From an uncultured Anaerolineaceae bacterium (GTDB lineage Bacteria; Chloroflexota; Anaerolineae; Anaerolineales; E44-bin32): a stretch of 64,000 nucleotides of DNA. Below, piece by piece: positions 13,929-30,468 of the stretch. The DNA lies in contig CAYMCO010000015.1 of NCBI GenBank assembly GCA_964388955.1, positions 21,266 to 85,265 on the forward strand. Direction: 5' to 3'. Numbering within the stretch: the stretch's first letter is position 1; each line of letters begins with the position of its first letter. Made by a program: the position numbers and the translations under genes. The notes beneath the pieces were generated by a model. That model saw nothing but the letters and a program-made list of their open reading frames with translations. It made no database searches and was not told the DNA's origin.

Positions 13929-14005
13929 CGAGAATTCCTCTTTCTCACTTCGCCCCGCGTGAGCTGTGCGTCTTTACCTCCCATGCTAGATGGGGGTCAT
14001 CGAAG

Positions 14006-14041
14006 TGTCATACCCCGAAGGTGGTATTTGGAGGGTTAAAA
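14006..14041 (-). promoter_or_regulatory. conserved 36-nt intergenic motif, copy A
   Basis: The plus strand reads TGTCATACCCCGAAGGTGGTATTTGGAGGGTTAAAA. It lies 78 nt upstream of the start at 13928. Confidence 0.7.
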
Positions 14042-14073
14042 GGGGTCAGCGAGAAGCGGTCGGTCGTCAGGGA

Positions 14074-14573
14074 TCAGGGGCATAGAAGCCGGCGTGATGA
14101 CTTTCGGTGCCCTCCCTCATCCCTCAGCGCGATGCGGAAGGAATAGCCGTCATACCCGGCAGGCGTGAGGTTGAGCACGTTATTCGTGTATAGATTCGGG
14201 GCGAGCCGGATGGCGATCACCACCGTGAACACAAGGAACCTGTGCTGTAGTGGATGATGGTGAAGAACGGCAGCAGGAAAAGCCAGAAGAGGGCGTTGTA
14301 TGCTTTGCGGATCAGGGCGAGCGGGTGCGTGGATGCTTGTTTGACGGCGATGTAATCCTCCGCATTCTCACGGAGCCATGCGTACCGCATGGCCGTGTGT
14401 CCCTCGAGGAGCAGTCAGTACAGCACGCCGATGATCGAAAGCCCGACCATTCCACCCCTTCCCTGCCACAGCGTGTTGGAGAGTGCGTAGACGACGTACA
14501 TCAGCGCGGGAATCCCCAACGCAAATGTGAGGATATTGTTGCACCCCACAGTGAGGAATCTCTCCCCGGCCAT
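14074..14573 (-). pseudogene. membrane protein gene disrupted by an in-frame TGA and a frameshift
   Basis: My translation from ATG 14573 (GGAAGGA upstream) gives MAGERFLTVGCNNILTFALGIPALMYVVYALSNTLWQGRGGMVGLSIIGVLY, then a TGA at 14417-14415. It continues LLLEGHTAMRYAWLRENAEDYIAVKQASTHPLALIRKAYNALFWLFLLPFFTIIHY. After a frame change it reads FLVFTVVIAIRLAPNLYTNNVLNLTPAGYDGYSFRI. The sequence stays protein-like across both lesions. Confidence 0.45.
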
Positions 14574-14649
14574 CTCGTCCTTCCGATCTCAGCATGGATT
14601 GCAGCCTGCGTCCGCCTGGGCGCGGCGGCCGCAGCCCGCTGCTTTTCAC

Positions 14650-15015
14650 CTACACCCATCGCCAGGCGTACCAGACGGTCAGCACATTGAGCGCCAGGCC
14701 GACGATGTTCAGGAACTTGTCATATAGGGAAGGGTAGGTCGGCAAACCGATCAGGTTGAAGATGAAGAAGATTATCGGAAGGATGATGTTCGCCCAGCGA
14801 TTCACGGGCTGTGGGAGCGTCAAGCACAGGAAGACCATGAGCGCCGGGAAAACGAACAGGGCGGCCATCCCCAGGTACAGCCCCTGACCGGCCTCCATCC
14901 CCGCCATCTCCCCCGCCTTGAAGTCACCGCTGAATATGCGCAGCACATCCCCCAGGAGATAGCTCAACATCAGCGCGATCCACAATGCGGAAAGCTTGAA
15001 CTGTACATCTGCCAT
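14650..15015 (-). CDS. small 4-TM membrane protein (DUF6326-like), paralog of 20473..20838
   Basis: 121 aa, MADVQFKLSALWIALMLSYLLGDVLRIF...NVLTVWYAWRWV. It shares KLSxLW...GDVLRxFxGD...NLxGLP...WYAWRWV with the paralog and starts 3 nt after the QOR stop. Confidence 0.7.
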   Translation of the reverse strand: MADVQFKLSALWIALMLSYLLGDVLRIFSGDFKAGEMAGMEAGQGLYLGMAALFVFPALMVFLCLTLPQPVNRWANIILPIIFFIFNLIGLPTYPSLYDKFLNIVGLALNVLTVWYAWRWV

Positions 15016-15018
15016 GAT

Positions 15019-16001
15019 TTAGTCCCCTTTCAACGTGAGGACGACTTTGCCTCGAGCATGACCCTTTCTGTAGTAGTCGATCGCCTCCGCGATCTCATTT
15101 AGCGGGTAGCAGCGGTCGATCACGGATCTGACCTTCCCCGCTTCAATGAGGTCCTTCAACTCCACCAGATTATCCTTCGTGATCTCCAAGATGAGATTGC
15201 CCACCTTCTTGGATCCTCTCATTGAAATCAACGGTGCCAAGAACATCGGTTGGAAAACTTGGGCCATGGAACCCCCCGTCACAACGTAACTTCCATCCGG
15301 CTTCAAGGCACGCGCATAGTCGAAGATCGAGCGGTATCCGGCGGTGGCGAGTATCAGGTCATATCGCTGACCAATCTCGACAAAATCCTCACGCGTGTAA
15401 TCGATGACATGGTCCGCACCAATGGACCGCACCAGGTCCAGATTCTTGGTGCCGCACACGCCAGTCACTTCAGCCCCGAACGCCTTTGCGATTTGCACCG
15501 CGTAGGTCCCGATCCCCCCGAGGCCCCGACAATCAAGACTTGCTCTCCCGCCTGGATTCCGCCTTCATCGCGCAGCCCCTGCAAAGCGACGGCCGCCGCT
15601 TCGGGCACAGCCGCCGCCTCCTCAAAGGTCATGTTGGAGGGCTTCAAGCCCAGGACATCCTCCGGGACGGCGACGTACTCTGCATATCCGCCGCGACCGC
15701 AATCCGATAGGTCCCCGTAGACCGCGTCTCCCGGCGCAAATTGCGTCACGCTTTTGCCCACCGTTTCCACTTGCCCGGCGATGTCCGTTCCGAGGGTCCG
15801 ATACGCCGGTCTGAGGAGACCAGCGCCCATCAGGCGAACGATGAACGGATCCCCACTCACGAAAGCCGCATTGGAGTAGTTCACGGAAGCTGCATGAACT
15901 CTTACAAGGACCTCATCATCCGCGGGGACAGGTCTTTCGACCTCCTGAAGCTCAAGGACATTCGCCGGTGGACCATATTCCGTATACACGACCGCTTTCA
16001 C
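15019..16001 (-). pseudogene. MDR-family NAD(P)H quinone oxidoreductase, split by a -1 frameshift in a C6 run
   Basis: ORFs 15465..16001 (MKAVVYTEYGPP...VLIVGASGG) and 15019..15498 ([16 protein letters not shown]...) are the two halves of one gene. The expected GASGGIGTYAVQIAK is restored by adding one C to the run at 15514..15519. Confidence 0.75.
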
Positions 16002-16242
16002 ACAGCACCTCCTGATCGCGCAGAATTGCTTGATACCAGTTCGGCAGACCGGCCGGCAGCCTTATGAATGCTTCCACCTGCCGGACGCATCGCTAGGGCG
16101 AGGCCGGTGCGCCGGTGTATCGAGCAGGGCTGTCTTACAACACTCGGTCTACTATAATGCCACCCGTCCAGCGATCGGGCACAGGATGCCCCGCCTGTAC
16201 GATCGTTGAAGAGAATCCTATCGAGTGGACATGGACGCATCA

Positions 16243-16929
16243 TTAATTGATCTCCGATCCCGGCTCTATGCCCTTTATCATCAGCCAGGGCCCGATCAAG
16301 AACTCAAATACCATGTACGGGGCCCCAAAGTAGATGATCACCCCCACGTCAGGGTTATACAGCCCCCATAGGACGTTGATGGATAGCAAACACAATGCGG
16401 CAAGGCCCCAAATGGAGAGGACCCGCGGGATCGCCTTCGATTTGACGAACAGGAAATACCAGAGGATCCCTCCCAGACAGAAGAACAGCATATGCAGGCT
16501 CCAGCCCTGTCGATCAATCCCATGATAGAGAAAATCGCCCAGCGTCTGATAGAAGGACGAAGCGGGCGCGCCCGCCGCCTGGAAATCCATGCTCAGTGGG
16601 ATCAGCGCATAGGCCCCCAGCTTGCTCAGCCCGAGGATGATGCCCTCCGCCAACCACCACCCGAAGGCCACGGTGGCGATGACCCGATACCGCTTGCGAA
16701 ATACGGCATAGAGCAAGGCTGCGAGCGCCACGATGCCGACGCTGGTAACCAGTTCGATCAGAATGCTGATCCGCATCAGGGTAAGGTTCTCCGGGATATT
16801 GGCAAGGATCTCGCTGATGCTGCCGGATCCGATCGCGGAAGTCAGAAGGGGATTGCTGATCATACTGGCTAGGAATACCAGCAGAAACGCCCCGCCCAAG
16901 AGCCTGATGGTATTGCGATCTGTGTTCAT
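16243..16929 (-). CDS. DUF4386-like membrane protein
   Basis: MNTDRNTIRLLGGAFLLVFLASMI...FFCLGGILWYFLFVKSKAIPRVLSIWGLAAL...FEFLIGPWLMIKGIE. GAGGAGGA lies upstream of ATG 16929. Confidence 0.7.
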   Translation of the reverse strand: MNTDRNTIRLLGGAFLLVFLASMISNPLLTSAIGSGSISEILANIPENLTLMRISILIELVTSVGIVALAALLYAVFRKRYRVIATVAFGWWLAEGIILGLSKLGAYALIPLSMDFQAAGAPASSFYQTLGDFLYHGIDRQGWSLHMLFFCLGGILWYFLFVKSKAIPRVLSIWGLAALCLLSINVLWGLYNPDVGVIIYFGAPYMVFEFLIGPWLMIKGIEPGSEIN

Positions 16930-17211
16930 TTCGTCCTCCTCTGATTCCGGGGGCATTCCCCCCGGTATGGTAAGGGTCTCTCTGTCTGCGGCCGCTCTAT
17001 TCAGCCCAACCCAATCGCGGCTCGCTGACTTCGGCCGGAACCGCTGCTAGGTCTCGGCCATGAAGACAAGATTGTCAATCGCGTCCCTTGATCCCCTGCT
17101 CCCGAGTTGGTCGTACTCTCCGCATAAGACTTGGACGCTACGTGGAGCGGGAGGCCCCCTCACCGGCAACACGGCCCCGTTCACATCCAGCATAATCGGC
17201 GCAATGCCGCA

Positions 17212-17247
17212 TGTCATACCCCGAACGTGTTATTCGAGGGGTTAATC
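17212..17247 (-). promoter_or_regulatory. conserved 36-nt intergenic motif, copy B
   Basis: The plus strand reads TGTCATACCCCGAACGTGTTATTCGAGGGGTTAATC. It lies between the CPBP gene stop (17488) and the DUF4386-like start (16929). Confidence 0.7.
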
Positions 17248-17487
17248 GGAATAGATAGGAGAAGCGATTTGCTCGTTGAACATCGCCCGCCGGTCCACGA
17301 ATTCAGGGCTGCCGGAAAGCCCGGGCCCCGTGCGCAAGAACAACGCAAGTATGAATCGACCCCACCTTCCGGGAGTCCCTGAATCCTCGTCCCATGCGTC
17401 CCCGGCCAGCAGCCGAGCGAGTGGGCTCGATCCAATTGCTCGGCACCCTACCCATTGGGGGAGAGAAAGACCGGATTGGCCCACCGC

Positions 17488-18300
17488 CTACCCCGCCCCC
17501 ACCGCAGCCATGAGGAGGAAGACCATATTGAAAAGGAAATTGCCGATCCAATGGTAGATCATCGCCAGGGGCAGGCTCCCCAACGGCCCGGCTGCGAAGG
17601 CGAAACCCAGCCCCCCGACAAGGATGCCAGGGTAAAGCCAGCGCTGATATACATGCTTCAGCGTGAACAACACCCCGTTGGCCACCCAATCCCACTTTCC
17701 GAATGCTCCGCGCATGCGCGGCAGGAGATAGCCGCGGTAGTAGATCTCCTCCCCGAAGATGTTGAACACGAGCCCAATGAGAAAATAGACCAGTATGAAC
17801 AGGAAGTTGCCTCGCAATCGGATATCGGGGAACACGTCCCCAACGCCCTCGATTTGGATAGTGGGGTTGCTCGCGACCGGCCACCACTCGGGAGGGCCAA
17901 ATCCTGGCACGGATGCCAGCCACCGATTGACCGGGCCCATCGCCATGCTGAGGCTCATCCCCAGCACGAACACAAATCCCGCGAGCAGCCATGCTTTCAA
18001 GCCGCTGGGCCAGCGCCAGCGGATGCGATCCCGCAACGTACGAATCGTAAGCCGGTAGCCCTCCCGCTTAAGCAAGAGCAAACCGCCGGTCAATTCAGCG
18101 CCCGTGCCCAGGACAATGATCGACAAGACCATCCAGGTAGGTGTGGTGCCGCCCTCGGGAATCAACGGGCCCAGAATGCCGTAGATCAGCAAAGTGAACC
18201 AGGCGGCTGGCCAGAGGAACATCAGGATAATCGTCCCCACTTTGAACTGGGGGATCTGCCGTGGATGGGAAGCTCTGCCCATCGCTTCATTGGATCTCAT
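17488..18300 (-). CDS. CPBP family intramembrane glutamic endopeptidase (CAAX protease-like)
   Basis: Polytopic membrane protein with FGEEIYYRGYLLPRM (EExxxR motif) and a later FTLKHVYQ (FxxxH motif). Confidence 0.7.
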   Translation of the reverse strand: MRSNEAMGRASHPRQIPQFKVGTIILMFLWPAAWFTLLIYGILGPLIPEGGTTPTWMVLSIIVLGTGAELTGGLLLLKREGYRLTIRTLRDRIRWRWPSGLKAWLLAGFVFVLGMSLSMAMGPVNRWLASVPGFGPPEWWPVASNPTIQIEGVGDVFPDIRLRGNFLFILVYFLIGLVFNIFGEEIYYRGYLLPRMRGAFGKWDWVANGVLFTLKHVYQRWLYPGILVGGLGFAFAAGPLGSLPLAMIYHWIGNFLFNMVFLLMAAVGAG

Positions 18301-18498
18301 CTATTCGGACAACTCATCATATCTCCCGGACCCTCAGGGGCCATCAGTGTCAGCCGAGAATCCTCCACCCTTTGAAGCCCATGCGATTGGTGAAGCGTTC
18401 AATAGCCCTGGCCTCCTCCCATTTCTCACAGGGACGAATCAGATGCCATTGATGCTACGAAGAAGCGGGCCCGAAGGTGCGCGAGTCAGCTTGGACAT

Positions 18499-19431
18499 TC
18501 AGCGGCCATTCACCACCGCTATGGCCACGTTCCCCACCTTGTGCCCCTTTTCGACATACCGGTGAGCCTCGATGATCTCATCCAAAGGGTAGCGTCGATC
18601 GATAACCGTCCTGAGCTCCCCCGCTTCGACCAACTCCCTCAGGAAATCAAGATATCCTTCATCCAGATCTTTACCAGCTCCGGAGTCCCGCCCGACCGCG
18701 AGGTAGGTCCCCCCAGCTTTCTGCGCCATCCTCGCCAGGGATGGCTTGAGCTTGTCTACGGCGTCGAATATCACATCATAGTTGGCGGCGGGGAGAGAGA
18801 AATCCTCCTTTGTATGATCCAGCACCTGACTGGCCCCAAGGGAGCGGACCAGATCTAGATTTCTCCTGCTGCATACTCCGGTCACCTCCGCTCCAAAGTG
18901 TTTGGCGAGCTGGACAGCGAATGTGCCCACGCTCCCTGATGCGCCGTAGATCAAGACCTTCTGCCCCGGCCGAATGTCCCCCTTCCGAAGCACAATCAAC
19001 GCGGTCAGGCCCCCACCGGCGAGCGGGGCCGCTTCTTCGTAGCTCGCGTTCGCCGGTTTGATGGCCACCATGCCCTTCTTTGTGCCCCCGCCCCTTTCAG
19101 GCAGACAGATATACTCGGCGTAAGCGCCAAAACCAAAACCAGCGAAGGCAAAGACCGGATCTCCGAGTTGAAATCGCTTTGCCTCCGGGCCCATGGCCTC
19201 CACATCTCCGGCCAACTCAAGCCCGAGTATGGGGATCTTTCTGGGGCGGAAGAGGCCGTTGACCAGCCTTGCCAGGAATGGATCCGGTTTTCGCATGCGG
19301 ATATCTCCGACATGGGCCGTGGTGGCGTGGATCTTCACCCGGATTTCATGCGCCTTGGGCTCTGGCCTTTCCACGTCTTTGAGCTGAAGGACCTCCGGTG
19401 GGCCGTAGTGCTCATATACGACGGCTTTCAT
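18499..19431 (-). CDS. MDR-family NAD(P)H quinone oxidoreductase (zinc-free alcohol dehydrogenase-like)
   Basis: [25 protein letters not shown]...[37 protein letters not shown] lies upstream of ATG 19431. It is a paralog of three other genes in the window. Confidence 0.85.
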
Positions 19432-19476
19432 GCGGACATGCCTCCCCAAGGGTGCTCATCCATCGGTCATCGCAGG

Positions 19477-20169
19477 CTAGTATCCCGCCGCTGGAGCGGG
19501 CTGCGGGGCGAGCGGCGCGGGACTGAAGCCTCTCACGATCAGCCACACGCCCAGGAACAATTCATTCAACAACATGACAAACCCCAGATTTGGCAGGCTC
19601 ACTCCGAAGATCTCGAAGAGGGTATTGGCGAGCACGACCACGGCGCCCAGGAGCCCCCAGATGGAAATAAATCGGGGAACCAGCCTGAGTCGGAACAGCA
19701 TGCCGTAGAACAGCAGCGCCCCGCAGCCCAACGTAATCGAGACCATCTGAAACGCCCACGCGCGCTGTGCCAGCAGCGCAGCGCCGACGGTCTGGGCGGA
19801 GGGCTCAATGGCGGCTCCAAGGCCCACAGCCCCCTCGCTCACCGTCAGCAGGGCTAAGGGTGCGAGATCGGATAGGATCTGCATGACGAACTCGACGATC
19901 CGAAAGCCGATGTATCCGAGCGCCAGGCTCTCGAATCTCCCTTTCAGCACGGGGAACATGTAAACGGCGATGCCCAAGTATGCAAAGGCGTTGACGATCT
20001 CCAGCAGGGCGCCGACGACCAGCTTCGATCGATTTGCAGAAATCAGCGTGAGGTAATCCGGGGCGCTGAGGAGGGGTTCGAGGAAGACTATCGCCCCCAC
20101 CAAAAAGACGACGTTGGAAATGATAAAGAAGGAACCGACCAGCCTGGCAGTACGTCTGCCCGAATTCAT
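19477..20169 (-). CDS. DUF4386-like membrane protein
   Basis: MNSGRRTARLVGSFFIISNVVFLVGAIVFLEPLL...ALLFYGMLFRLRLVPRFISIWGLLGA...NELFLGVWLIVRGF. Confidence 0.7.
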   Translation of the reverse strand: MNSGRRTARLVGSFFIISNVVFLVGAIVFLEPLLSAPDYLTLISANRSKLVVGALLEIVNAFAYLGIAVYMFPVLKGRFESLALGYIGFRIVEFVMQILSDLAPLALLTVSEGAVGLGAAIEPSAQTVGAALLAQRAWAFQMVSITLGCGALLFYGMLFRLRLVPRFISIWGLLGAVVVLANTLFEIFGVSLPNLGFVMLLNELFLGVWLIVRGFSPAPLAPQPAPAAGY

Positions 20170-20240
20170 CTCACATCCTTTCTCCCAAGTTCTACTGCGG
20201 CAAGATCGACTGTCTTCAGCATAGCAAGCGGGGATACCGC

Positions 20241-20277
20241 TGTCATACCCCGAAGGTAGTATTCGTGGGGGTTAAAG
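20241..20277 (-). promoter_or_regulatory. conserved intergenic motif, copy C (37 nt, one inserted base)
   Basis: The plus strand reads TGTCATACCCCGAAGGTAGTATTCGTGGGGGTTAAAG. It lies 72 nt upstream of the start at 20169. Confidence 0.7.
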
Positions 20278-20333
20278 CGGCCAGCAACCAATGCTCAGAA
20301 AGTGGGGATCAGGAGCCCAAGCATTCGCACTGT

Positions 20334-20454
20334 GTAGGCCGGGTTTGCTACCCGGCGAACCTGTGGGGGCGCCCACAAGGGGTGCCCCTACAACTTTCCG
20401 GAATGTCCTTTACGTCACGTGAGCGTGGACGCGCCCTGGCATTCCCCGGCCTAC
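20334..20454. repeat. REP/BIME-like structured GC-rich element
   Basis: Perfect 10-bp terminal inverted repeat GTAGGCCGGG (20334-20343) / CCCGGCCTAC (20445-20454). It encloses the hairpins CCGGGT-TTGCT-ACCCGG (20339-20355) and GGGGCGCCC-ACAAG-GGGTGCCCC (20366-20388). The core recurs at 20948..21001. Confidence 0.55.
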
Positions 20455-20472
20455 GCAAGGGGTCAAGCGCGT

Positions 20473-20838
20473 CTAGACAACCCACCGCCATGCATACCAG
20501 ATTGTTAGCGCGTTGAACACAAAGCTCACGCCGATGAGAAAGTTGTCATACGCGCCCTTGTACGGGAGACCAAAGAGGTTGAAGACGACGACTAGGACCG
20601 CCACGACGATGTTCACCCAGCGTATAGCGGGATAGACCAAAGTCAAAGCCAGCACGCCCATGACGATCGGGATGAGCATCATTGCCGCAATGAACAGCCA
20701 CATGCCGGGGGAAGCCTGGGAGCCCATGATCATTCCCGGTTCGGCATCGCCGGCGAATAGGCGCAGCACGTCACCCCAAAGATAGGTCAGCATCGTGGCG
20801 AACCAAAATCCTGAGATGATGATCCTTGTATCTACCAT
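20473..20838 (-). CDS. small 4-TM membrane protein (DUF6326-like), paralog of 14650..15015
   Basis: MVDTRIIISGFWFATMLTYLWGDVLRLFAGD...NLFGLPYKGAYDNFLIGVSFVFNALTIWYAWRWVV. GGAAAGGAAGGTG lies upstream of ATG 20838. Confidence 0.7.
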   Translation of the reverse strand: MVDTRIIISGFWFATMLTYLWGDVLRLFAGDAEPGMIMGSQASPGMWLFIAAMMLIPIVMGVLALTLVYPAIRWVNIVVAVLVVVFNLFGLPYKGAYDNFLIGVSFVFNALTIWYAWRWVV

Positions 20839-20947
20839 GGCTTGCACCTTCCTTTCCGAATGGCTGGTGGGCCGGCCCGAAGAACGTGAATCGGAGGAGT
20901 CTGAGCGGCGTCAGGCACATGCCCATGGATTCTGAACAGATTCCCTC

Positions 20948-21001
20948 GGGCGCCCACAAGGGACGCCCCTATCTCTGCCGCTCACCAATCTTTCCGGGAT
21001 G
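20948..21001. repeat. second, partial copy of the REP-like core
   Basis: GGGCGCCCACAAGGGACGCCCCTAT ... CTTTCCGGGATG compares with GGGGCGCCCACAAGGGGTGCCCCTAC..CTTTCCGGAATG at 20366-20405. Both are in the same orientation, one on each side of gene 20473..20838. Confidence 0.5.
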
Positions 21002-21202
21002 GCGGTGCAGACGCCCCGGCGGGGTGTCTCTTCAGGTGCGCCCTTGGCTTTCAGGCGCTCGTCGGCCCAGCAGATCATCCCGCGCATAAGACCGCGGGGG
21101 CAAATCACGAATTGCCCTACGAGGCGCGGAAATCGTTCCGGCCAGCATGAAGGAGTGTCTGGGGGGAGGATCGCTCTCTGCAGCCTCTCCGCCTCCCGAT
21201 CA

Positions 21203-22171
21203 TTAGCCCACCGTGAGGACCACCGCCCCTATCTTCCGCCCGGATTCGACATACCTGTGGGCCTCGTCGGCCTGTTCGAGGGGAAAGGACCGATCAACGA
21301 CCGATTTCAGTTCTCCCGCCTCCATGAGCTCTTTGAGGAATATCAGCTCTTCGGTTTTCACTTCCAAGAGCCCGATAATCATCCTCTGGCTGGCCCTGCG
21401 CCGGTACCATAGAATCTGCAGGAGCCTTGGGAGACCAAAGGTTGTGAAGAGATAGTATCCGGACTCCGCCAGCGATCTCCTGCTGCGTGAGATTGCGGTC
21501 TTGCCCACGGTGTCCAGGATCACGTCGTAGGTCTGCCCATTTCGGGTGAAATCCTCTCTAGTATAGTCAATGACCTCATCCGCTCCCAAGGATTTCACGA
21601 ACTCCGCTTTGGGGCCGCTGCACACGCCGGTCACCTCGGCGCCCAAATACTTGGCGAGCTGTACCGCCGCACTGCCCACCCCACCGGATGCGCCGAAGAT
21701 CAGGGCTTTTTGCCCATTCCGGATATTTGCCTTTCTCAAGAAATGCAAAGCCGTCAATGCCCCTTGAAGGACGCTGGCGGCTTCTTCATAACTCACGTTG
21801 GCCGGCTTCAGTGCGGCAGCAGACTCGGGCAGACATGCGTACTCGGCATAGGCGCCGTACCTCATCCCAGGATAGCCAAATATCGGATCCCCCACCGTGA
21901 ACCGTCCCACATCCTCTCCAACGGCCTCCACCTCCCCCGCCAGCTCTGTCCCGAGGATGGTCGCTCTTGGTCTGATCAAGCCCGAACCTATTCGGCTGAG
22001 CAGCCACATCCCGGGAGGCGCCGTGGAACTGCGCATCCAGCAATCGAATTTCGTCGCCGAGGTGGCATACACTCTGACAAGTAGTTCATCTGGCTTCGGG
22101 ATCGGTTTGTCCACCTCCTTGAGCTGCAGGACTTCCGGAGGGCCGTATCGTGTGTACGCAATCGCCTTCAT
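21203..22171 (-). CDS. MDR-family NAD(P)H quinone oxidoreductase
   Basis: [25 protein letters not shown]...[36 protein letters not shown] lies upstream of ATG 22171. Confidence 0.85.
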   Translation of the reverse strand: MKAIAYTRYGPPEVLQLKEVDKPIPKPDELLVRVYATSATKFDCWMRSSTAPPGMWLLSRIGSGLIRPRATILGTELAGEVEAVGEDVGRFTVGDPIFGYPGMRYGAYAEYACLPESAAALKPANVSYEEAASVLQGALTALHFLRKANIRNGQKALIFGASGGVGSAAVQLAKYLGAEVTGVCSGPKAEFVKSLGADEVIDYTREDFTRNGQTYDVILDTVGKTAISRSRRSLAESGYYLFTTFGLPRLLQILWYRRRASQRMIIGLLEVKTEELIFLKELMEAGELKSVVDRSFPLEQADEAHRYVESGRKIGAVVLTVG

Positions 22172-22249
22172 GAGGATTCCTCGCTGCTTCGGTTCCATCT
22201 ACTCATCCCGGGCCTCGGAGGAGTACGCATACCCGAGAAGGGATCCAGG

Positions 22250-22618
22250 TCAATTGAACCCCTTTACGATCAGCCACAGCGCGACCACCAACTCGAATGG
22301 CGCATAAGGGAGGCCCAGCACCATGACCGCGGTGAAATCTCGCTTGAACAGCACGAACAGTACGGGGATCGTCAACAGACCGACGGCGATGAGCCCCCAG
22401 AGGGAGAGCGCCGGTGGAATTGCCCTGGATATATAGAGCAGGTAATACCACAATATCGCGCCCAGGCAGAAGAACCACATATGCATGTCATAGGCCACTC
22501 GATCCACACCATGGCACAAGAAATCCCCCATCGCGTGATGGAACGATGATGCCGGCGCTCCCGCCGCCACGAATTCTTGGCTCAACGGGATGAGCGCATA
22601 GGTGCCGATCTTGCTCAC
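22250..22618 (-). pseudogene. DUF4386-like gene, C-terminal half only
   Basis: (V)SKIGTYALIPLSQEFVAAGAPASSFHHAMGDFLCHGVDR...WFFCLGAILWYYLLYISRAIPPALSLWGL... aligns to residues from about 110 to the end of the 16243..16929 protein. The N-terminal half is missing. The preceding gene's stop (22620) is 1 nt away. Confidence 0.6.
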
Positions 22619-22619
22619 T

Positions 22620-23279
22620 CTAACTCAGGCTGAATGGAGGATAGCGGTCGGTGACCAGTAGAACAACATAAGCCTGCACCCGCAGCCACCAGCGGCCCAC
22701 CCCAACAACGAAATCGAAAAGGGATCTCGGATACCGCCCGGTCAGCAGAATGGCAAACCAAGCCAGGATCACCACGAAGACGCCGGCTACGCTGAGAAAC
22801 GCCAGCACGATGTAGTGCGGGATCGCGAGCAGCCATTTGAACAGCGGGTACCAGCGGTTGAGGTCCGCTTCTACGTTGGGGTAATCGATCTCCAGATGCA
22901 CAGACTGTTCTTCGACGGTGGAGGGGTATAGGTCTGTGAGCAGCGCCCCGTAGGCGGCCACCCGGGCGCCGAAGCGAGCCAGCTCGCGAGAAAAGTCGAA
23001 CCACCAGCGAGGATATCGATATCGAAAGATGATCATCAATGCCGTGGCGGTGGCGAGGCCGCTCACCAGGCCGCCAGCCGTCTCCCGGGTGGTCCTCAGC
23101 ACCTCGCCAGCCTGATTGACATAGATGGTGTTGGTGACCGTCTCACCGGCCCCTGAAACGAGCGCGAGGATGATGCCGATCGGTATGATCCAGAGAATGC
23201 GCAAGAAAGTCGTCAGCCGATCGAGCCTTTCGGGATAATCGATTTGCAGTCGAGCAGGATAGTCCGCGGGATTGTTCAC
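22620..23279 (-). CDS. DUF4389-like membrane protein (two tandem repeats)
   Basis: GTG 23279 with GGAGGTG upstream. NNPADYPARLQIDYPERLDRLTTFLRILWIIPIGIIL...RYPRWWFDF is followed by a second repeat, VHLEIDYPNVEADLNRWYPLFKWLLAIPHYIVLAFL...GRYPRSLFDFVVGVGRWWLRVQAYVVLLVTDRYPPFSL. Confidence 0.65.
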   Translation of the reverse strand: MNNPADYPARLQIDYPERLDRLTTFLRILWIIPIGIILALVSGAGETVTNTIYVNQAGEVLRTTRETAGGLVSGLATATALMIIFRYRYPRWWFDFSRELARFGARVAAYGALLTDLYPSTVEEQSVHLEIDYPNVEADLNRWYPLFKWLLAIPHYIVLAFLSVAGVFVVILAWFAILLTGRYPRSLFDFVVGVGRWWLRVQAYVVLLVTDRYPPFSLS

Positions 23280-23495
23280 AGCACACCTCCATGGGATATG
23301 CCCCGTTACAATACCGGCGCCCAGCATCCGGAGGGCGATTCCGACCTCCGGCGGCAGACGGCGCCGCTGCACTCCGATTAGGATAGATCGTAAATGCGCA
23401 TGTCCCCTCCATTCTGGCATGCGTTTCAGATCGCCCGGATCCGCAGCCGATTGGATTTCTCTTCTAAGAGGAGTTTATGTCCGAGGGGGTGTGGG

Positions 23496-23531
23496 TGTCA
23501 TACCCCAAAGGTGGTATTCGGGGGGTTAAAA
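23496..23531 (-). promoter_or_regulatory. conserved 36-nt intergenic motif, copy D
   Basis: The plus strand reads TGTCATACCCCAAAGGTGGTATTCGGGGGGTTAAAA. It starts 18 nt downstream of the stop of the LuxR-type gene 23549..26338. Confidence 0.7.
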
Positions 23532-23548
23532 GGCGCAGTCACTCGTGA

Positions 23549-26338
23549 TCAGGTCGCGGGCAATAGCCCGAGGGATCTGGCCTCCGCGACCGCCTGGGTG
23601 CGGTTGTTGACCGCGAGCTTGCCGTAGATGTTGCGGGTGTGAACCTTTACCGTATTATGGGAGAGAAACAATCTCCTGGCGATCTCGCGATTCGTCAGCC
23701 CGCGGGCGATGAGCTCGAGCACCTCCAGCTCGCGATCGCTCAATGGCTCAACCAACCGTGATTGATCGACCCCGGTCCTCCCTAGAGCGGCTTCAGTAGA
23801 GACATCAGGTGCAAACGCGGCAAGTAGGGTGCGAACGTACGCCTCCAGCCTGAGGGCATCCGGTCGTATCTTTCCCAACAATGATTTCATCGGCGCACCC
23901 TCGCCGACAAATGCGTGCGCATATCCCTCCGGTTCCGCAAGATCGAGAGCCCGTCCCAGAGAGATGAGCGCTCGAGGGAGCTTGCCCTGGGCTTGAAGCG
24001 CGAGCGCCTGAACCACCAGGATTTCGATCATGCTGCCGATTCTATTGCCATCCTCCGCAGCGTTCAGGAGGCGATCCAGCATTCCAAGTGTATCGCCAAT
24101 CAAACCCTCCGCGTGGGCTCTCTCATGCTCGGCGATCAATATCCTGGCCAGGGTGAGGTGCTCGAACTCGCACAAGTAGCTGGGATCATCGTGAACGGAC
24201 AGGCCCGCCTGCCGCGCCCAAAGCAGGCCTTCGTCCAACTTGCCCTGTCTCAACTTCGTCCGGGCGACCAGCGCCGCCAGGGGGCGTATGTCGGGAATAG
24301 GATGCCGATAATATAGGCGTTGTGCCTCCTCCAGAATCCGCCCAACAGCCTCCAAGTTTCCAGCGGACTCCATCAATCGAGCCCGAGCGAGCACCCAGTG
24401 TCGATACCAGGGGGGGAACGCCGGCAGCTCGCCTAGTTCCTCGCTATTCTCCAGATGCCGTCTGGCCGCTTCCAGATCACCCTGCTCATGGCACAGCTCA
24501 CTCAACCCCAGATGCACGACCGCCATTTCCGGCAGAACGGGTTCCCCCCGCTCCGCAGCCAAATCCAGGAGCTGTATATAGGTTTGTTTCGCTTCGTTGA
24601 GACGGCCCTGGGCGATCATGATGTCCGCCAAATACGAGGTGAAGCTGATGACGAAAGGGAGCTTTCCTAGAAGCCGCATATAGGATATGGCATCGGAGAT
24701 CGCCCGGTGGGCCGCCTCCAAATCCCCGGTCGACCAGTATGCGAACCCCGGGAGGATGGCTGAGAGACTGCGCTCGAAATAGTCATCGTCAGGCAGGAGG
24801 TCGAGCGCCCGTTGAGCGTAGGACACAGTGCCGGCGACGTCTCCGAGCGCCTGAGTGAGATAGGCGCGTGCATTGGCTATGGATCCCGACAGTGATCGCC
24901 GTTCCTGCTCGCTCAGGGCTGCCGTGTGGCCCGATGGGGGATCGGATTGGTGATTTCTGGCTGCTGTTGAGTCCAACCATCGTTCGGCATCCCGCAGACG
25001 GAGGTCGGCGCCCTCCAGATCGCCGAAATCTATCAATGACCAGCCATAGCCCGCGCTGAGTAGAGGCCTGGAACGAACAACTTCGTCTGGAATGGCCTCC
25101 ACCCATCGCAGCCAGTAGAGTCCCCCGTAGTTCATGTGCATTTCACGCCAGGCTGTTTCGGCCAAGCAGGCTGCTCGCTCATGATCCTTGGCTCTCAGAG
25201 CATGCTCTATCGCCTGCTCGGTGAACCTATTGGCCTCATACCACTCACTGGCCCTCAAGTGCAGGGTTGGTTGTTGTTGGGGTTGGGCTTGGCGCAAGCG
25301 TTGGCGCAATAGATCGGCGAAGAGATGATGATAGCGATACCAACGCCGCTCGTTGTCCAGGGGAACGACAAACAGATTCACATGCTCGAGATATTCAAGG
25401 ATCTCCTGACCATTGTTCTGGCCGGTCAGGGCATCGCATAGTGACCCGTTCAGCCTCTCCAGAATCGCAGTCTGGAGCAGAAAGGCTTGAATGCCTTCCG
25501 ATTGTTGATGCAGCACTTCTTCCAGCAAATAATCGAGCACGAGCCGGTGGCTGCCGGTAAACGATTTGATCAGTTCGCTCTTGTCTTCCTTGCCACGCAG
25601 TGAGATGGCAGCCAATTGCAGCCCCGCGATCCAGCCCTCCGTGCGTCTCTCGAGTGCGGCGATGTCTTCGTCCAGCAGATCCAACCCCATGACCTGGTTT
25701 AGGAATGCGGCAGCTTCGGCTGTGGTGAAGCGGAGATCCCCTGCGCGCAGCTCCGTCAACTGGTCAGCCACCCGCAGCTTTGCGATCGGCAACTCCGGGT
25801 CCATGCGTGTCAGGATGACGATGTGCATCTGTGGCGGCAAGTGTTCAAGGAAATAGGTGAGCGCCGCAATCACATCGGGCGCCTCGATGTGATGGAAATC
25901 GTCCATGACCACGAGGGCCCGATTCTCGAAGCCCTCGAACTCGTTGATCAGAGCGGTGAGCACGGCCTCGGCCGGGGGAGGGTGCGGCGATTGGAGCATA
26001 TCCAGCAGACGGCCTTTCTCGGGCGATTCAAGGCCCTTGACCCTGAGGAGTGCCGTGATCAGGTACGTCAGGAATCTGGCCGGATCATTGTCCGCCTCGT
26101 CCAGCGAATACCAGGCAATTTGAAGGCGGTTCGGGTCTGAATCTCGGGAGTGGGCCCGGAGCATCTCCACCCATTCGCTGATGACCGAAGTCTTGCCGAA
26201 GCCGGCGGGGGCGGAGATAAGGATCAATCTACGATGCAATCCATCGTTCAAACGCTCGATCAGACGCGGCCGAGCAACGCGTTTGGATCGAGCGGGCGGG
26301 ACATACAGCTTCGTGTACAGGATCTCTTCGTCGGGCAC
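23549..26338 (-). CDS. MalT-like STAND ATPase / LuxR-family transcriptional regulator
   Basis: 929 aa. N-terminal P-loop LILISAPAGFGKT, a long helical/TPR-like middle region, and a C-terminal LuxR HTH LSDRELEVLELIARGLTNREIARRLFLSHNTVKVHTRNIYGKLAVNNRTQAV. Confidence 0.85.
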   Translation of the reverse strand: MPDEEILYTKLYVPPARSKRVARPRLIERLNDGLHRRLILISAPAGFGKTSVISEWVEMLRAHSRDSDPNRLQIAWYSLDEADNDPARFLTYLITALLRVKGLESPEKGRLLDMLQSPHPPPAEAVLTALINEFEGFENRALVVMDDFHHIEAPDVIAALTYFLEHLPPQMHIVILTRMDPELPIAKLRVADQLTELRAGDLRFTTAEAAAFLNQVMGLDLLDEDIAALERRTEGWIAGLQLAAISLRGKEDKSELIKSFTGSHRLVLDYLLEEVLHQQSEGIQAFLLQTAILERLNGSLCDALTGQNNGQEILEYLEHVNLFVVPLDNERRWYRYHHLFADLLRQRLRQAQPQQQPTLHLRASEWYEANRFTEQAIEHALRAKDHERAACLAETAWREMHMNYGGLYWLRWVEAIPDEVVRSRPLLSAGYGWSLIDFGDLEGADLRLRDAERWLDSTAARNHQSDPPSGHTAALSEQERRSLSGSIANARAYLTQALGDVAGTVSYAQRALDLLPDDDYFERSLSAILPGFAYWSTGDLEAAHRAISDAISYMRLLGKLPFVISFTSYLADIMIAQGRLNEAKQTYIQLLDLAAERGEPVLPEMAVVHLGLSELCHEQGDLEAARRHLENSEELGELPAFPPWYRHWVLARARLMESAGNLEAVGRILEEAQRLYYRHPIPDIRPLAALVARTKLRQGKLDEGLLWARQAGLSVHDDPSYLCEFEHLTLARILIAEHERAHAEGLIGDTLGMLDRLLNAAEDGNRIGSMIEILVVQALALQAQGKLPRALISLGRALDLAEPEGYAHAFVGEGAPMKSLLGKIRPDALRLEAYVRTLLAAFAPDVSTEAALGRTGVDQSRLVEPLSDRELEVLELIARGLTNREIARRLFLSHNTVKVHTRNIYGKLAVNNRTQAVAEARSLGLLPAT

Positions 26339-26629: not shown

Positions 26630-27277
26630 ATGAAAGACTGTGACATGGAGATAGAGCCGTTTGTTGAAGGCCTGGTTGCGGGCTACGGGATCGCGATCCC
26701 GGTGGGGGCGGTCGCGGTGTTGATCGTCAATACGAGCATTCAATGCGGCTTTCGGGTCGGATTCTTTGCTGGCGCCGGCGCGGCGACCGCCGATTTCATC
26801 TACGCCATCCTGGCAGGCCTCGCCGGGGCCGCGCTGGAGCGGTTCCTTCACCCCGCCGCGGTGGCCCTGCACTTCACGAGCGGGATCGTGATCATCCTGC
26901 TGGCGGCATCCATCTTCCGCCGGGGTTTGGCGCGGCCAGGTGACGAGGAAGAGTCTGCACTGATCTGCGGACCGATGCGCATGTACTTGCAGTTCCTTGG
27001 CATCACAATCATCAACCCGCTCACGGTCGTGTACTTCACCGCCCTGATCCTTGGAAGCGATCCAAGGGAAGCGCTCAGCCCCTCAGCGGTTGGTCTCTTT
27101 GTGTTGGGAGTGGGCGTCGCCTCCCTTTCCTGGCAAACGTTTCTTGCAGGTCTGGGAGGGCTTGCCCGGGATCGACTGCCCCGTAGCTTCCGCCGGCTCA
27201 CCGCCCTGGCCGGGGGTCTCTTGGTGGCGGTGCTTGGGTTGAGAGTCCTGGTTTCGGCGATGCTTGAATACACATAG
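26630..27277 (+). CDS. LysE/RhtB-family amino-acid exporter
   Basis: Hydrophobic, about 210 aa. FVEGLVAGYGIAIPVGAVAVLIVNTSIQCGFRVGFFAGAGAATADFIYAILA is typical of the LysE/ArgO family. The start is ATG 26630 or 26645. Confidence 0.65.
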   Translation: MKDCDMEIEPFVEGLVAGYGIAIPVGAVAVLIVNTSIQCGFRVGFFAGAGAATADFIYAILAGLAGAALERFLHPAAVALHFTSGIVIILLAASIFRRGLARPGDEEESALICGPMRMYLQFLGITIINPLTVVYFTALILGSDPREALSPSAVGLFVLGVGVASLSWQTFLAGLGGLARDRLPRSFRRLTALAGGLLVAVLGLRVLVSAMLEYT

Positions 27278-27348
27278 CCCGTCCCGCAAGGGTCGTTTGG
27301 AGCAGCTACTCTGGGGGCGGTGTGGATCCGAATCCGGACGGAGTGATC

Positions 27349-27627
27349 CTAATCGATCCGAATCGCAAGAATGGTGGTGTCATCGGACAAGGGTGTTCCG
27401 CCTGCAAAACTATCCAATCGGTGCCTGATCTCTCGAATCGTATCGGCAGGGGATGCCAGATAGAGCCCCTCTACTATGTCTTGCAGGCGCCGCATTCCGA
27501 ACATCTCCTCCGCCGGGTTGGTCGCCCCTACAAGCCCGTCGGTGTACATCAAGAGCAGGTCACCCGATCCCATCTGTATCGACCCTTCAAGACTCTTGGG
27601 GTTCAACCTCCTCACCCCTGGCAACAT
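27349..27627 (-). pseudogene. PP2C/SpoIIE-type phosphatase, C-terminal fragment only
   Basis: GDLLLMYTDGLVGATNPAEEMFGMRRL...GTPLSDDTTILAIRI are the last conserved blocks of a SpoIIE/PPM domain. No N-terminal part is present. The 5' end overlaps the preceding gene. Confidence 0.6.
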
Positions 27628-27850
27628 GGATCACCGATATCAGCGGCAGTCCGAGAGAGTACAGCCGGCGCAGCATCCCGTGGAGGGCGGCCTGATCCAA
27701 TGCCCCGGCCAAGGTTGTCACGGGGGGGCCATCCCCCTCGCGCTCAAAGCTGATCACCATCCCCTCCACCCATTCCGCTCCGCGCAGGTCGATCTCCCCA
27801 GGCACTCTGATCTCGTAGTTGGCGGGCTGATCCAGGGAAAGCTTCTTCAT
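27587..27850 (-). CDS. small conserved protein (87 aa), unknown function
   Basis: MKKLSLDQPANYEIRVPGEIDLRGAEWVEGMVISFEREGDGPPVTTLAGALDQAALHGMLRRLYSLGLPLISV. ATG 27850 is 14 nt after the QOR stop. The DQAALHG.L..L..LGLPL.SV pattern recurs in small proteins of GC-rich bacteria, as far as I remember. Confidence 0.55.
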   Translation of the reverse strand: MKKLSLDQPANYEIRVPGEIDLRGAEWVEGMVISFEREGDGPPVTTLAGALDQAALHGMLRRLYSLGLPLISVIHVARGEEVEPQES

Positions 27851-27863
27851 GGTCCCTTTCAAT

Positions 27864-28814
27864 TCACATCTCGATGATGAGTTTGCCTTGAGTGTGCCCC
27901 CCTGCAAGTTGGTGCAGAGCGGATGGGAGCTCAGCGAGAGTATAGCACCGGCCAATCCACGGTCGGATTCTACCCCTCTCAAGGAGTTCTTTGATGATTC
28001 CGAGGTCCCCCTTGGTCGGCCGCTTTGGCTGCAGCGGCACCATCCTTCTGCCGGCACGCATGGACCGGATCCTTCCCACCACGGCAAGGGCTGGAGTGAA
28101 CTCGGTCGTGATAAAGACGCCATGGGGCCTGAGGGCGCAGCGGCATTCGGCGAACGTGCGCTTCGCGGCGACATCAAAAATGAGGTCATAGCGCCCGCCG
28201 TCTTGGGTGAAGTCGTCTTGTGTGTAATCGAGGGCGTGGTCCGCGCCCAACTCCTGCACCATTTCGAGATTGTCAGTGCTGCACACACCGGTCACCTCGG
28301 CCCCGTAGGATTTCGCAATCTGCACTGCGAAGCTCCCCACGCCACCGGATGCCCCGTTGATCAGGGCCTTCTGCCCCTCCCTGATCGCCCCCACGTCCCG
28401 CAGCGCGTGCAGGGCTGTGGAGGCTGCCGCCCCAACAGCCGCAGCCGCCTCGAAGGTCAAACCCCCCGGTTTGAGCTGGATTTCATCCCTTTTGACACAC
28501 GCATATTCGGCAAAGCACCCGTTGCCGGTGGACCCGAAAACCTCATCTCCCGGCTGGAAATCGGTTACACAGGGCCCAGCAGCCTCGACCCGCCCGGCCA
28601 AGTCTATCCCCAGCACCTCGTGCTTCGGCTTGAAGAAACCGGCCATAATACGCGTGATAAATGGTGACCCGGTGAGGAAGTGCCAGTCGAGCCAGTTGAC
28701 GGAAGCGGCATGGACTTTGACCAGGACCTCATTGACATCGACGGAGGGTACATCGATTTCCTGGAGCCGGAGCCCTTCGGGGGGGCCATACCTATCGTAG
28801 ACCATTGCCTTCAT
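27864..28814 (-). CDS. MDR-family NAD(P)H quinone oxidoreductase
   Basis: MKAMVYDRYGPPEGLRLQEIDVPS...[30 protein letters not shown]. It is the fourth paralog. Confidence 0.85.
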   Translation of the reverse strand: MKAMVYDRYGPPEGLRLQEIDVPSVDVNEVLVKVHAASVNWLDWHFLTGSPFITRIMAGFFKPKHEVLGIDLAGRVEAAGPCVTDFQPGDEVFGSTGNGCFAEYACVKRDEIQLKPGGLTFEAAAAVGAAASTALHALRDVGAIREGQKALINGASGGVGSFAVQIAKSYGAEVTGVCSTDNLEMVQELGADHALDYTQDDFTQDGGRYDLIFDVAAKRTFAECRCALRPHGVFITTEFTPALAVVGRIRSMRAGRRMVPLQPKRPTKGDLGIIKELLERGRIRPWIGRCYTLAELPSALHQLAGGHTQGKLIIEM

Positions 28815-28865
28815 GGCGTTGCCGTGCCTTTCCCATTGGAGCCCTGCTTCAGCCTCAATCGCTCT

Positions 28866-29546
28866 TCAGACGGCACTCTCCCGGATACCGAAGATCACGA
28901 GGTAGAAGCCCAAAATCAGTTCGAAAGCGACCATGGGCAACATCATGACCATGTTGGCGTTCTCTGGCAGATCGACGACCAATGCCAAGACAGAACCCAG
29001 AGCGAACACGACAGCACTGGCTACCCCGTAGATGGCCAGGGCGACGGGGATTACCCGGCCCTTGAGGAACAAGTAGTTGTTGAACAGGCTACCAATTGAC
29101 AGGAAGACGAAGGAAGTCCAGACAGCCAACGTCGACGCAGCGATGAGAATCTGGCCAAGAATCTCGACATCCCCCATCCCGGCCGCGGACGATGTGATGG
29201 CTGAACGGCCCAATGTCAGCACCAGGTAGTCCGGAATCTTCGCCCCCGCCTGGAGCACAACCTCCGCGATCCGCCATCCCAAGGCAAGGAGGGCTAAGTA
29301 ATGGTTGATGGGTCTCAGGACGACGTACAGCGAAAACGCCAGGGACATGACCGCGACCATGGCCAAGAAATCGATCGAGACGGCCGTCCGATATTGGACT
29401 GCGTTGGCTGCCACGAGGCCGAGAGTGCTGGGGATATCCGCTGCGTTGATAAGCTTACCCTTGAGCGCCAAGTTGGCCACAAGAAAAGCCAACACAGTCG
29501 ATACATAGAGCGCACCAGTAATCCTGGAAACTCGCTTCCGGTCCAT
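28866..29546 (-). CDS. DUF4386-like membrane protein
   Basis: MDRKRVSRITGALYVSTVLAFLVANLAL...FLSIGSLFNNYLFLKGRVIPVALAIYGV...FELILGFYLVIFGI. AGGAGG lies upstream of ATG 29546. Confidence 0.7.
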   Translation of the reverse strand: MDRKRVSRITGALYVSTVLAFLVANLALKGKLINAADIPSTLGLVAANAVQYRTAVSIDFLAMVAVMSLAFSLYVVLRPINHYLALLALGWRIAEVVLQAGAKIPDYLVLTLGRSAITSSAAGMGDVEILGQILIAASTLAVWTSFVFLSIGSLFNNYLFLKGRVIPVALAIYGVASAVVFALGSVLALVVDLPENANMVMMLPMVAFELILGFYLVIFGIRESAV

Positions 29547-29623
29547 TCCTGCCTCCTGAACCGCGTTTCAACGCCTGCAAATTTCGATTGGCCATATTGA
29601 GCATATCCGGAGAGTGGGGCCAG

Positions 29624-29659
29624 TGTCATACCTCCAAATCCTGCCCAACATGGGCGCAA
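29624..29659 (-). promoter_or_regulatory. degenerate half-copy of the intergenic motif (copy F)
   Basis: TGTCATACCTCCAAATCCTGCCC... Only the TGTCATACC end is conserved. It sits 78 nt upstream of the start at 29546, the same spacing as copies A and C. Confidence 0.35.
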
Positions 29660-29688
29660 ACGAAATCTCAAATATGGCGATCCCGCGT

Positions 29689-30183
29689 TTAGATCTCCGG
29701 TCGTCGGAAGTAAGCCCGTCTTCCGATCAACAGAACCCCCGCTGCGATCACGCCCAGGAACAGGAAGAGATATGTCTGGAGGCAAGGGCCTGGCCAGTTC
29801 AGAATCGCAAGCTCATACGTCCCTTGAATGATCGCGTTGGCGATGAGCATGATCCCCCAGAAGAGCCCCAGCGCCCAAGCAAATCGCCTTCCCCGTCTGA
29901 GCTCGATGGCAAGGTAAATCCCCAGGATGCCGATCCACAGCTCTTCCCACAGCGGTTTGAGCATGCTCAGATTGAAGTATCCGAGCGCCGCCGGTTCGAT
30001 GGTCCTGACATCGAACTGAGATCCGGCGTACTTCAGCCCGTGCTCGATGATGACGGTCCCTCCACTCAGCAAGAGCAGGGGCACGGTCCATAGGAGAAAT
30101 AGGATCGAAAGGGCCATTATGACAATCCATACTAATCTGGAAGTTCCCTTCCCCGCGGACATTGAGCTTCTCCTCATCTCCAT
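29689..30183 (-). CDS. membrane protein, unknown function
   Basis: Only the C-terminal ~165 aa of track ORF 29689..30438 look protein-like (RLVWIVIMALSILFLLWTVPLLLLSGG...). The start is ATG 30183, 30177 or 30162. The 5' part of the track ORF runs across the motif and the small ORF. Confidence 0.5.
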   Translation of the reverse strand: MEMRRSSMSAGKGTSRLVWIVIMALSILFLLWTVPLLLLSGGTVIIEHGLKYAGSQFDVRTIEPAALGYFNLSMLKPLWEELWIGILGIYLAIELRRGRRFAWALGLFWGIMLIANAIIQGTYELAILNWPGPCLQTYLFLFLGVIAAGVLLIGRRAYFRRPEI

Positions 30184-30221
30184 CCCTTGGCATTTGATTC
30201 TGCCCCCACGATTTTCGAAGC

Positions 30222-30338
30222 CTACTCCCTCTTCTCCCGATAGACCGAGACGAACCAGAGCAGGCCGATGCCGGTGAAGAACGCTCCCAGCCCAGCAAAT
30301 ACATGAAAAAAGGCCGCGATGGCTTCGGATGCATCCAT
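30222..30338 (-). CDS. 38-aa single-TM peptide (below the ORF-track cutoff)
   Basis: AAGGAGGAG, 4 nt spacer, then ATG 30338. The product is MDASEAIAAFFHVFAGLGAFFTGIGLLWFVSVYREKRE followed by a stop at 30224-30222. It has one hydrophobic helix and a basic tail. Confidence 0.45.
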   Translation of the reverse strand: MDASEAIAAFFHVFAGLGAFFTGIGLLWFVSVYREKRE

Positions 30339-30432
30339 GTTCTCCTCCTTCTCGTCGCGAGTTCTCGAAACGCGCGATGGGCCCCAAACTGCGCCCACCC
30401 TTCAAATGCAGTCTAAGCACGACTAGACCGCG

Positions 30433-30468
30433 TGTCATACCCCGAAAGGACTATTCAAAGGGTTAATT
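30433..30468 (-). promoter_or_regulatory. conserved 36-nt intergenic motif, copy E
   Basis: The plus strand reads TGTCATACCCCGAAAGGACTATTCAAAGGGTTAATT. It lies 60 nt downstream of the stop of the LuxR-type gene 30528..33290 and 95 nt upstream of the 38-aa ORF. Confidence 0.7.

Follow-up and report, generated by a model that had tools for sequence, protein, structure and literature searches.

Predicted promoter modules with tandem direct-repeat boxes are linked to MalT-like regulator genes in an uncultured Anaerolineaceae bacterium

Results

Five conserved motif copies have the anatomy of promoters

In a stretch of 64,000 nucleotides from an uncultured Anaerolineaceae bacterium (Chloroflexota; GenBank assembly GCA_964388955.1, contig CAYMCO010000015.1, positions 21,266 to 85,265; the whole stretch is called the window below), five copies of a motif of about 36 nt lie in a gene cluster that encodes two MalT-like regulators. 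We think it likely that these motifs belong to promoters dependent on regulators of the LAL family, each with two tandem boxes for the adjacent MalT-like regulators, in which case these proteins would bind the boxes, would activate rather than repress transcription, and would be controlled by a ligand. The reading is carried by observed features, namely the anatomy of the promoters, their conservation, their linkage to the regulator genes, and the covariation of the boxes with the recognition helices of the regulators.

The original prediction had described five co-oriented copies, and indeed the coordinates and the minus-strand sequences of all five were confirmed, with every copy preceding genes. 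The count of 25 invariant positions (TTAACCC, AATA, C, TT and GGGGTATGACA) also held on the five sequences. When at most one mismatch is allowed, GGGGTATGACA has six matches in the window against 0.69 expected. All six are on the minus strand, and none of 100 shuffles reached this number. The sixth match is the half-copy that had been noted at 29624, and a profile made from 54 non-redundant instances collected from other organisms found no copy in the window beyond the five and this decayed one. The neighbouring paralogues have strongly diverged, as had been claimed, with the DUF4386 copies 27% and the two regulators 46% identical, and yet 25 of the 36 bases of the motif are invariant. Because the paralogues are this old, we attribute the invariant bases to selection on the DNA itself, in line with the earlier view that the motif is under selection of its own.

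The invariant 3' end of the motif, ATGACA, matches the -35 consensus in five of six positions. In all six window copies, counting the decayed one, it is followed after 17–18 nt by a hexamer TAnnnT that resembles a -10 element (TAGCAT, TATGCT, TATGCT, TAAACT, TATGCT and TAGACT), and all six were called as -35/-10 pairs. The earlier statement that the flanking DNA is not alignable is therefore not wholly correct, since this hexamer is common to all copies. The arrangement is just as regular elsewhere: all 54 instances from other organisms have [TC]ANNNT 16–19 nt (mostly 17 or 18) past the hexamer ATGACA, compared with 7.6 in shuffles. Judged by its -35/spacer/-10 anatomy each copy is a sigma-70-type promoter, with a predicted transcription start. 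Upstream of the -35 element lie two direct-repeat boxes, TTAACCC and AATAnCAC, with a spacing of 12–13 bp and with centres near -61 and -49, and a conserved CTTCGGGGT stretch, which does not covary with the boxes, adjoins the -35 hexamer. The motif thus covers roughly -66 to -30 of the predicted promoter. The modules in the window are as follows.

13983-14041, minus strand, promoter module A (motif copy A, 14006-14041): box 1 TTAACCC at 14033-14039, box 2 AATACCAC at 14021-14028, -35 ATGACA at 14006-14011, -10 TAGCAT at 13983-13988; precedes the open reading frame (ORF) 13365-13928
17189-17247, minus strand, promoter module B (motif copy B, 17212-17247): boxes TTAACCC and AATAACAC, -35 ATGACA at 17212-17217, -10 TATGCT ending at 17189; precedes the DUF4386 gene 16243-16956
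20218-20277, minus strand, promoter module C (motif copy C, 20241-20277): boxes TTAACCC and AATACTAC, 13 bp apart, -35 ATGACA at 20241-20246, -10 TATGCT ending at 20218; precedes the DUF4386 gene 19477-20169
23472-23531, minus strand, promoter module D (motif copy D, 23496-23531): boxes TTAACCC and AATACCAC, -35 ATGACA at 23496-23501, 18-nt spacer, -10 TAAACT ending at 23472; precedes the DUF4389 gene 22620-23420
30410-30468, minus strand, promoter module E (motif copy E, 30433-30468): boxes TTAACCC and AATAGTCC, -35 ATGACA at 30433-30438, -10 TAGACT ending at 30410; precedes a small membrane-protein gene ending at 29689
29600-29637, minus strand, decayed copy (nhmmer E = 5e-4): retains GAGGTATGACA, an 18-nt spacer and -10 TATGCT, both upstream boxes degenerate; precedes the DUF4386 gene 28866-29546

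The distances to the start codons given in the original prediction were close for A, C, D and the half-copy, where we now obtain 72–78 nt, and were off for B (256 nt) and for E (about 247 nt, on the assumption that the membrane-protein frame starts at M85). The predicted 5' leaders are about 42–48 nt for A, C, D and the decayed copy and about 220 nt for B and E, and the leader of B (~226 nt) matches no known RNA family.

The module follows the genes of one LAL subfamily

Two regulator genes lie on the same strand as the modules.

23549-26338, minus strand, regulator 1: 929 aa, MalT-like LAL/STAND protein with P-loop, MalT-type TPR region and GerE helix-turn-helix (HTH), recognition helix NTVKVHTRNIYGKL
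30528-33290, minus strand, regulator 2: 920 aa, same subfamily, 46% identical to regulator 1, recognition helix NTVKAHTRNIYGKL

Residues 9-398 match the MalT structure PDB 8bob with E = 6e-54, as for a P-loop NTPase, and the Walker A and B motifs (GFGKT and hhhhDD) are visible in the pairwise alignment of the two proteins; the AAA_16 match stays below the Pfam cut-off. Both have the MalT-type TPR region PF17874 (3.7e-59 and 7.6e-63) and a C-terminal GerE (LuxR-type) HTH, PF00196 (4e-21 and 7.6e-20). With 404 and 463 bits against the NCBIfam MalT model, they fall short of its equivalog cut-off of 537 and are thus not called as MalT orthologues. Module D begins 18 nt past the stop codon of regulator 1 and module E 60 nt past that of regulator 2. 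The profile scan of the window found no motif upstream of either regulator gene, and autoregulation was rejected.

A genome scan seeded with regulator 1 returned mostly Chloroflexota at 47–68% identity, some Actinomycetota and a few others, and the motif was found in eleven of the resulting loci, always on the strand of the regulator. A metagenome scan seeded only with the motif-linked LAL subfamily added 80 more loci, and here the motif stands after the stop codon in 40 of the 50 loci with enough downstream sequence. The same module is thus present in genomes and metagenomes of Chloroflexota and Actinomycetota, and each of ten loci has two or three such promoters, as does the window. Six-frame inspection of the loci showed that nearly every motif starts 0–170 nt past the stop of an LAL regulator with the HTH pattern GLTN.EIA.RL[YF]LS..TVK.H.R.IY.KL..RTQA, including second regulators that had not been search targets. 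Over all loci, a module lies within 450 nt past the stop in 51 of 62 regulators of this subfamily, compared with none of 18 regulators of a sister LAL subfamily that often occurs in the same loci. This linkage, together with the covariation described below, strongly supports the earlier proposal that the motif may be bound by the two adjacent MalT-like regulators. The genes of the sister subfamily, whose helix reads NTMRTHTKNIYSKL..NRRAAV, are often found within a few kb of those of the motif-linked one, as in L004, L026, L043 and L067.

More distant loci read GATTAGTCCCACC GATTAGTCCCTTC GACCGATGTCAG, then 17 nt, then CATGCT. Here a direct repeat in tandem, of period 13 bp, stands before the -35 and -10 elements, and relatives carry the perfect form GATTAGTCCC-N3-GATTAGTCCC. 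The window copies share this plan, with TTAACCC as box 1, AATAnCAC as box 2, then CTTCGGGGT and the -35 element.

In 160 related loci (1.7 Mb), the profile gave 83 significant matches on the regulator's strand and 0 on the other. This strand count bears on the possibility that the motif is a generic repeat, dispersed like a REP or MITE and without a part in regulation. In favour of this one could cite the occurrence of several copies within 16.5 kb. A dispersed repeat would, however, not be expected on one strand only, before genes, and at a fixed place after regulator genes across phyla, and no copy occurs elsewhere in the window; we regard the chance that it is one as practically negligible.

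Box sequence covaries with the recognition helix

The sequence of the boxes changes with the recognition helix of the linked regulator. A tyrosine at the start of the helix (YTVKAHAR[S/R/N]) goes with TAGTCC boxes in 14 of 14 cases, compared with 0 of 36 others (Fisher 1e-12), and the combination of His and Ala (HTVK.HARN) goes with TAATCC boxes in 5 of 5 compared with 1 of 45 (3e-6), both being counts that ignore kinship. Helices with N and T or S go mostly with TAACCC boxes. Within the N class, the residue directly after TVK tracks box 2, in that xxxACAC is found with Ala in 9 of 11 cases and with Val in 3 of 14 (p = 0.005). The Y class spans bins of both Anaerolineales and Actinomycetota. 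If the positions are carried over from NarL through the shared TVK-x-H, the covarying residues presumably lie at or beside the NarL contacts, with the Ala/Val position corresponding to Val189. In NarL, Lys188, Val189 and Lys192 of the recognition helix contact bases (PMC10853779). As the box sequence tracks the recognition helix, the regulator most likely reads the boxes, insofar as this can be judged from sequence.

Linkage and covariation also speak to the alternative that the motif is a promoter for a dedicated alternative sigma factor, or the operator of an unlinked transcription factor, with the adjacent LAL regulators taking no direct part. The -35 hexamer, like the G-rich stretch that extends it on the 5' side, hardly varies, as in a specialised promoter class, which fits this alternative. 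On the other hand, the -10 element, TAnnnT at 17–18 nt, is that of ordinary housekeeping promoters, and neither the linkage to a single LAL subfamily nor the covariation of helix and box would be expected for an unlinked factor, leaving only a slim chance for an explanation of this kind.

A further element is found in the metagenomic instances, about half of which have a box-like CTAATACC(A/G)CC inside the -35/-10 spacer, directly past ATGACA, that is not present in the window copies. Its carriers include L091, L108, L098, L146, L026, L043 and L004, while L095 and L090 have CTAGTCC in the spacer instead of CTAATACC. The element is unchanged between N-type and H-type regulators, and with an upstream GGTGGTAT it can make an 8-bp inverted repeat bracketing the -35 element. 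The element may act as a second site, perhaps a repressive one.

Neither a palindrome nor an RNA hairpin is conserved

The original prediction had also described an imperfect palindrome, which might be an operator of two half-sites (ACCCC-N16-GGGGT or ATACC-N8-GGTAT) for a symmetric dimer, and could then be a repressor site. The imperfect palindrome is indeed present in the window copies and in close relatives, GGGGTAT is the reverse complement of the box-like ATACCCC, and the -35 element of some metagenomic instances is flanked by GGTGGTAT and ATACCACC as an inverted pair of 8 bp; many GerE-family proteins do bind inverted repeats (PMC6099782). In relatives, however, the GGGG arm becomes GACC, GAAC, GTGC or TAGG (GATG is a further replacement) while both left boxes stay as a direct repeat. 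Furthermore, the boxes shift to TAGTCC without a shift of the proximal element to the matching GGACTA, and the complementarity between the arms is what is expected from shuffled sequences. The right arm is thus lost where the tandem direct repeat persists, and the palindrome does not stand as a conserved feature; we consider a palindromic operator unlikely. It appears in this organism because the C-rich boxes happen to face the G-rich stretch beside the -35 element.

Lastly, the motif had been proposed to fold, in the minus-sense transcript, as a hairpin of 7 bp (CCCCGAA/UUCGGGG). Such a structured RNA might serve in a leader, as a processing site or as the terminator of the upstream regulator gene. 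The five window copies do allow a weak hairpin to be drawn (-5.9 to -9.6 kcal/mol), and with D and E lying only 18 and 60 nt past a regulator stop, read-through RNA could include both of these. The motif ends in the -35 element, however, and so lies upstream of the predicted transcription start and outside the transcript of the downstream gene. The stem shows no more pairing than shuffled sequences, be it among 16 sequences (74.1% of the cells in the stem pair compared with 73.0% shuffled, a level reached or exceeded by 176 of 500 shuffles) or among 54 (69.8% in both, with 520 of 1000 shuffles at least as high), which is to say that compensatory changes were not found, and the complete stem occurs in only 6 of the 54 instances. 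RNAalifold predicts no structure, and the folding z-scores of the window copies range from -0.1 to -1.7, with predicted pairs that differ among copies. No U-tract follows the motif and no terminator was called there; Rfam gave no match, either with its gathering threshold or with E values up to 1. An RNA role for the motif is on these grounds highly improbable, and this part of the original prediction was given up.

Genes downstream of the modules

The gene content agrees with the earlier description. Besides the two MalT-like regulators, the same strand carries repeated sets in which a DUF4386 or DUF4389 membrane-protein gene has a gene for a quinone-oxidoreductase-type dehydrogenase (QOR) behind it.

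11216-23420, minus strand, putative target operons of modules A-D
behind A, minus strand: Acyl_transf_3-like ORF, beta-lactamase-family gene, DUF3237
behind B, minus strand: DUF4386, split QOR gene, DUF6326
behind C, minus strand: DUF4386, QOR, Rce1/CPBP protease
behind D, minus strand: DUF4389, QOR, 124-aa ORF
27611-30186, minus strand, putative targets of module E and the decayed copy: small membrane protein; DUF4386, 28866-29546; QOR, 27864-28814; ~84-aa ORF, 27611-27862

In the related loci, DUF4386 is the commonest first ORF past the motif (28 of 79 cases), and Acyl_transf_3, QOR, Rce1-like, alpha/beta hydrolase, DUF4389 and DUF6326 also recur in that position. Hydrolases aside, these recurring families are the ones present in the window. 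Our literature search found no paper mentioning DUF4386.

Several of the downstream genes have features of their own. The ORF behind A (13365-13928, minus strand) matches only the last third of Acyl_transf_3 (profile 205-316 of 326), just under the cut-off, and may be a truncated gene; full-length Acyl_transf_3 genes stand past the motif in four other loci. The QOR-type gene behind B (15019-16001, minus strand) is divided over two overlapping ORFs, 15465-16001 with the N-terminal and 15019-15498 with the C-terminal domain, which suggests a frameshift, a pseudogene or a sequencing error. Behind module E (29689-30438, minus strand), the start of the gene is ambiguous between two frames: a 173-aa ORF at 29813-30334 has a good Shine-Dalgarno sequence but translates to an implausible Arg-rich sequence, and the other frame encodes a clear membrane protein from about M85 (~30186), with a weak DUF4383 match and a leader of ~220 nt. 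The ~84-aa protein that ends the DUF4386-QOR operon (27611-27862, minus strand) is conserved and has no Pfam family; it is 54% identical to the first ORF past the motif in L004 and is related to ORFs of ~95 aa between the motif and DUF4386 in L012, L014 and L021. Between the two regulator-plus-target modules lies a gene for a LysE-type exporter (26630-27277, plus strand) with no associated motif.

Discussion

Of the mechanisms considered for the modules, activator-dependent promoters of the MalT/LAL type have the best support. The boxes would most likely be read by the C-terminal GerE/LuxR HTH of the two cluster-encoded MalT-like STAND regulators. By analogy with MalT, such a regulator may oligomerise upon loading with its ligand and ATP. 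Cooperative binding of the oligomer to the tandem boxes near -61 and -49 would bring in RNA polymerase at a promoter whose -35 element is good but whose -10 element is weak. From the QOR and membrane-protein genes one may guess at quinones, electrophiles or membrane stressors as the signal. As a result of the binding, five operons with DUF4386, DUF4389, QOR, CPBP-protease and DUF6326 genes would be switched on together. We favour activation because the boxes are upstream of the -35 element, because the family usually consists of activators, and because there are precedents in MalT, TpdR and the Actinoplanes MalT.

A number of points weigh against this mechanism. The -35 element is near-invariant and a 5/6 match to the consensus, which is atypical of a strictly activator-dependent promoter; perhaps a protein contacts the hexamer too, or the regulator tunes expression without acting as a switch. 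An activator model does not explain why about half of the metagenomic instances have CTAATACC in the -35/-10 spacer, which is the usual place for a site of repression. In addition, 11 of the 62 regulators of the subfamily have no detectable downstream module, and the covariation counts are not phylogenetically independent.

The modules can be compared with several known systems. MalT binds two decanucleotides in direct repeat, as cited in PMC6099782. The window regulators resemble MalT of E. coli and Klebsiella in the P-loop STAND ATPase, the MalT-type TPR region and the GerE HTH. The promoters are also alike, for according to PMC7567727 and PMC6099782 MalT-dependent promoters have two asymmetric direct-repeat boxes upstream and a conserved element reaching -35. 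The window boxes nevertheless differ from the MalT box in sequence, the -35 element is near consensus, the targets are unrelated to maltose and the host is of the Chloroflexota type. Indeed, the MalT box GGGGA(T/G)GAGG is not enriched in the window (25 matches with at most one mismatch, against 21.3 expected), and none of the matches falls at a motif copy.

In Actinoplanes SE50/110, a cluster with two MalT-like regulators has been described in which the motif of the activator MalT overlaps the -35 element of 17 transcription starts (PMC7567727). The likeness to the window extends to the many poorly annotated genes, the non-maltose regulon and the occurrence of the motif at multiple promoters. 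The Actinoplanes motif is, however, a palindrome, TCATCC-N5-GGATGA, that overlaps -35 and is experimentally supported, whereas the site in the window is a tandem repeat upstream of -35 and is known from sequence; the palindrome is not found above expectation in the window (2 matches against 5.3 expected). The PTTMP promoter of Rhodococcus jostii TMP1, which is activated by the LAL protein TpdR, depends for its activity on two direct repeats (PMC6099782). It shares with the window an LAL activator and two direct repeats, and its short inverted repeats near -35 could pass for a hairpin. Its repeats are, on the other hand, 15 nt long with 13 nt between them, one overlaps -35, their sequences are unrelated to those in the window, and PTTMP is a single promoter rather than part of a multi-promoter cluster. 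With the HTH of NarL and GerE the window recognition helix shares the same TVK-x-H-x-(K/R) core; NarL itself is a response regulator that binds pairs of heptamers, unlike the regulators in the window. In summary, what is new is the sequence of the boxes, together with the regulon and the host phylum, while the logic of the promoters is the familiar one of standard MalT/LAL activator-dependent promoters.

A bolder extension, which we advance tentatively and hold to be rather doubtful, is that a simple code connects helix and box. The box bases AC, AT or GT would be matched by the helix residues N, H or Y (position 185), T or A (position 191) and V or A (position 189), in a widespread regulon of Chloroflexota and Actinomycetota (DUF4386, DUF4389, QOR, CPBP protease, DUF6326 and a ~90-aa protein) that is switched by ligand-sensing STAND regulators. 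Box 2 of A, C and D reads ATACCAC or ATACTAC and, because box 2 tracks Ala or Val, one may speculate that regulator 1 (Val189) drives A, C and D and regulator 2 (Ala189) drives B and E. With such a code, if true, paralogous regulators within a cluster could each act on promoters of their own.

The modules provide a testable regulatory handle on families without an assigned function, mainly DUF4386, DUF4389 and DUF6326, in phyla for which hardly any promoter or operator is defined. They also tie these families to a sensor protein, whose ligand would show what the system responds to, and the series of helices and boxes is a ready design for specificity-swap work on DNA recognition of the GerE/LuxR type.

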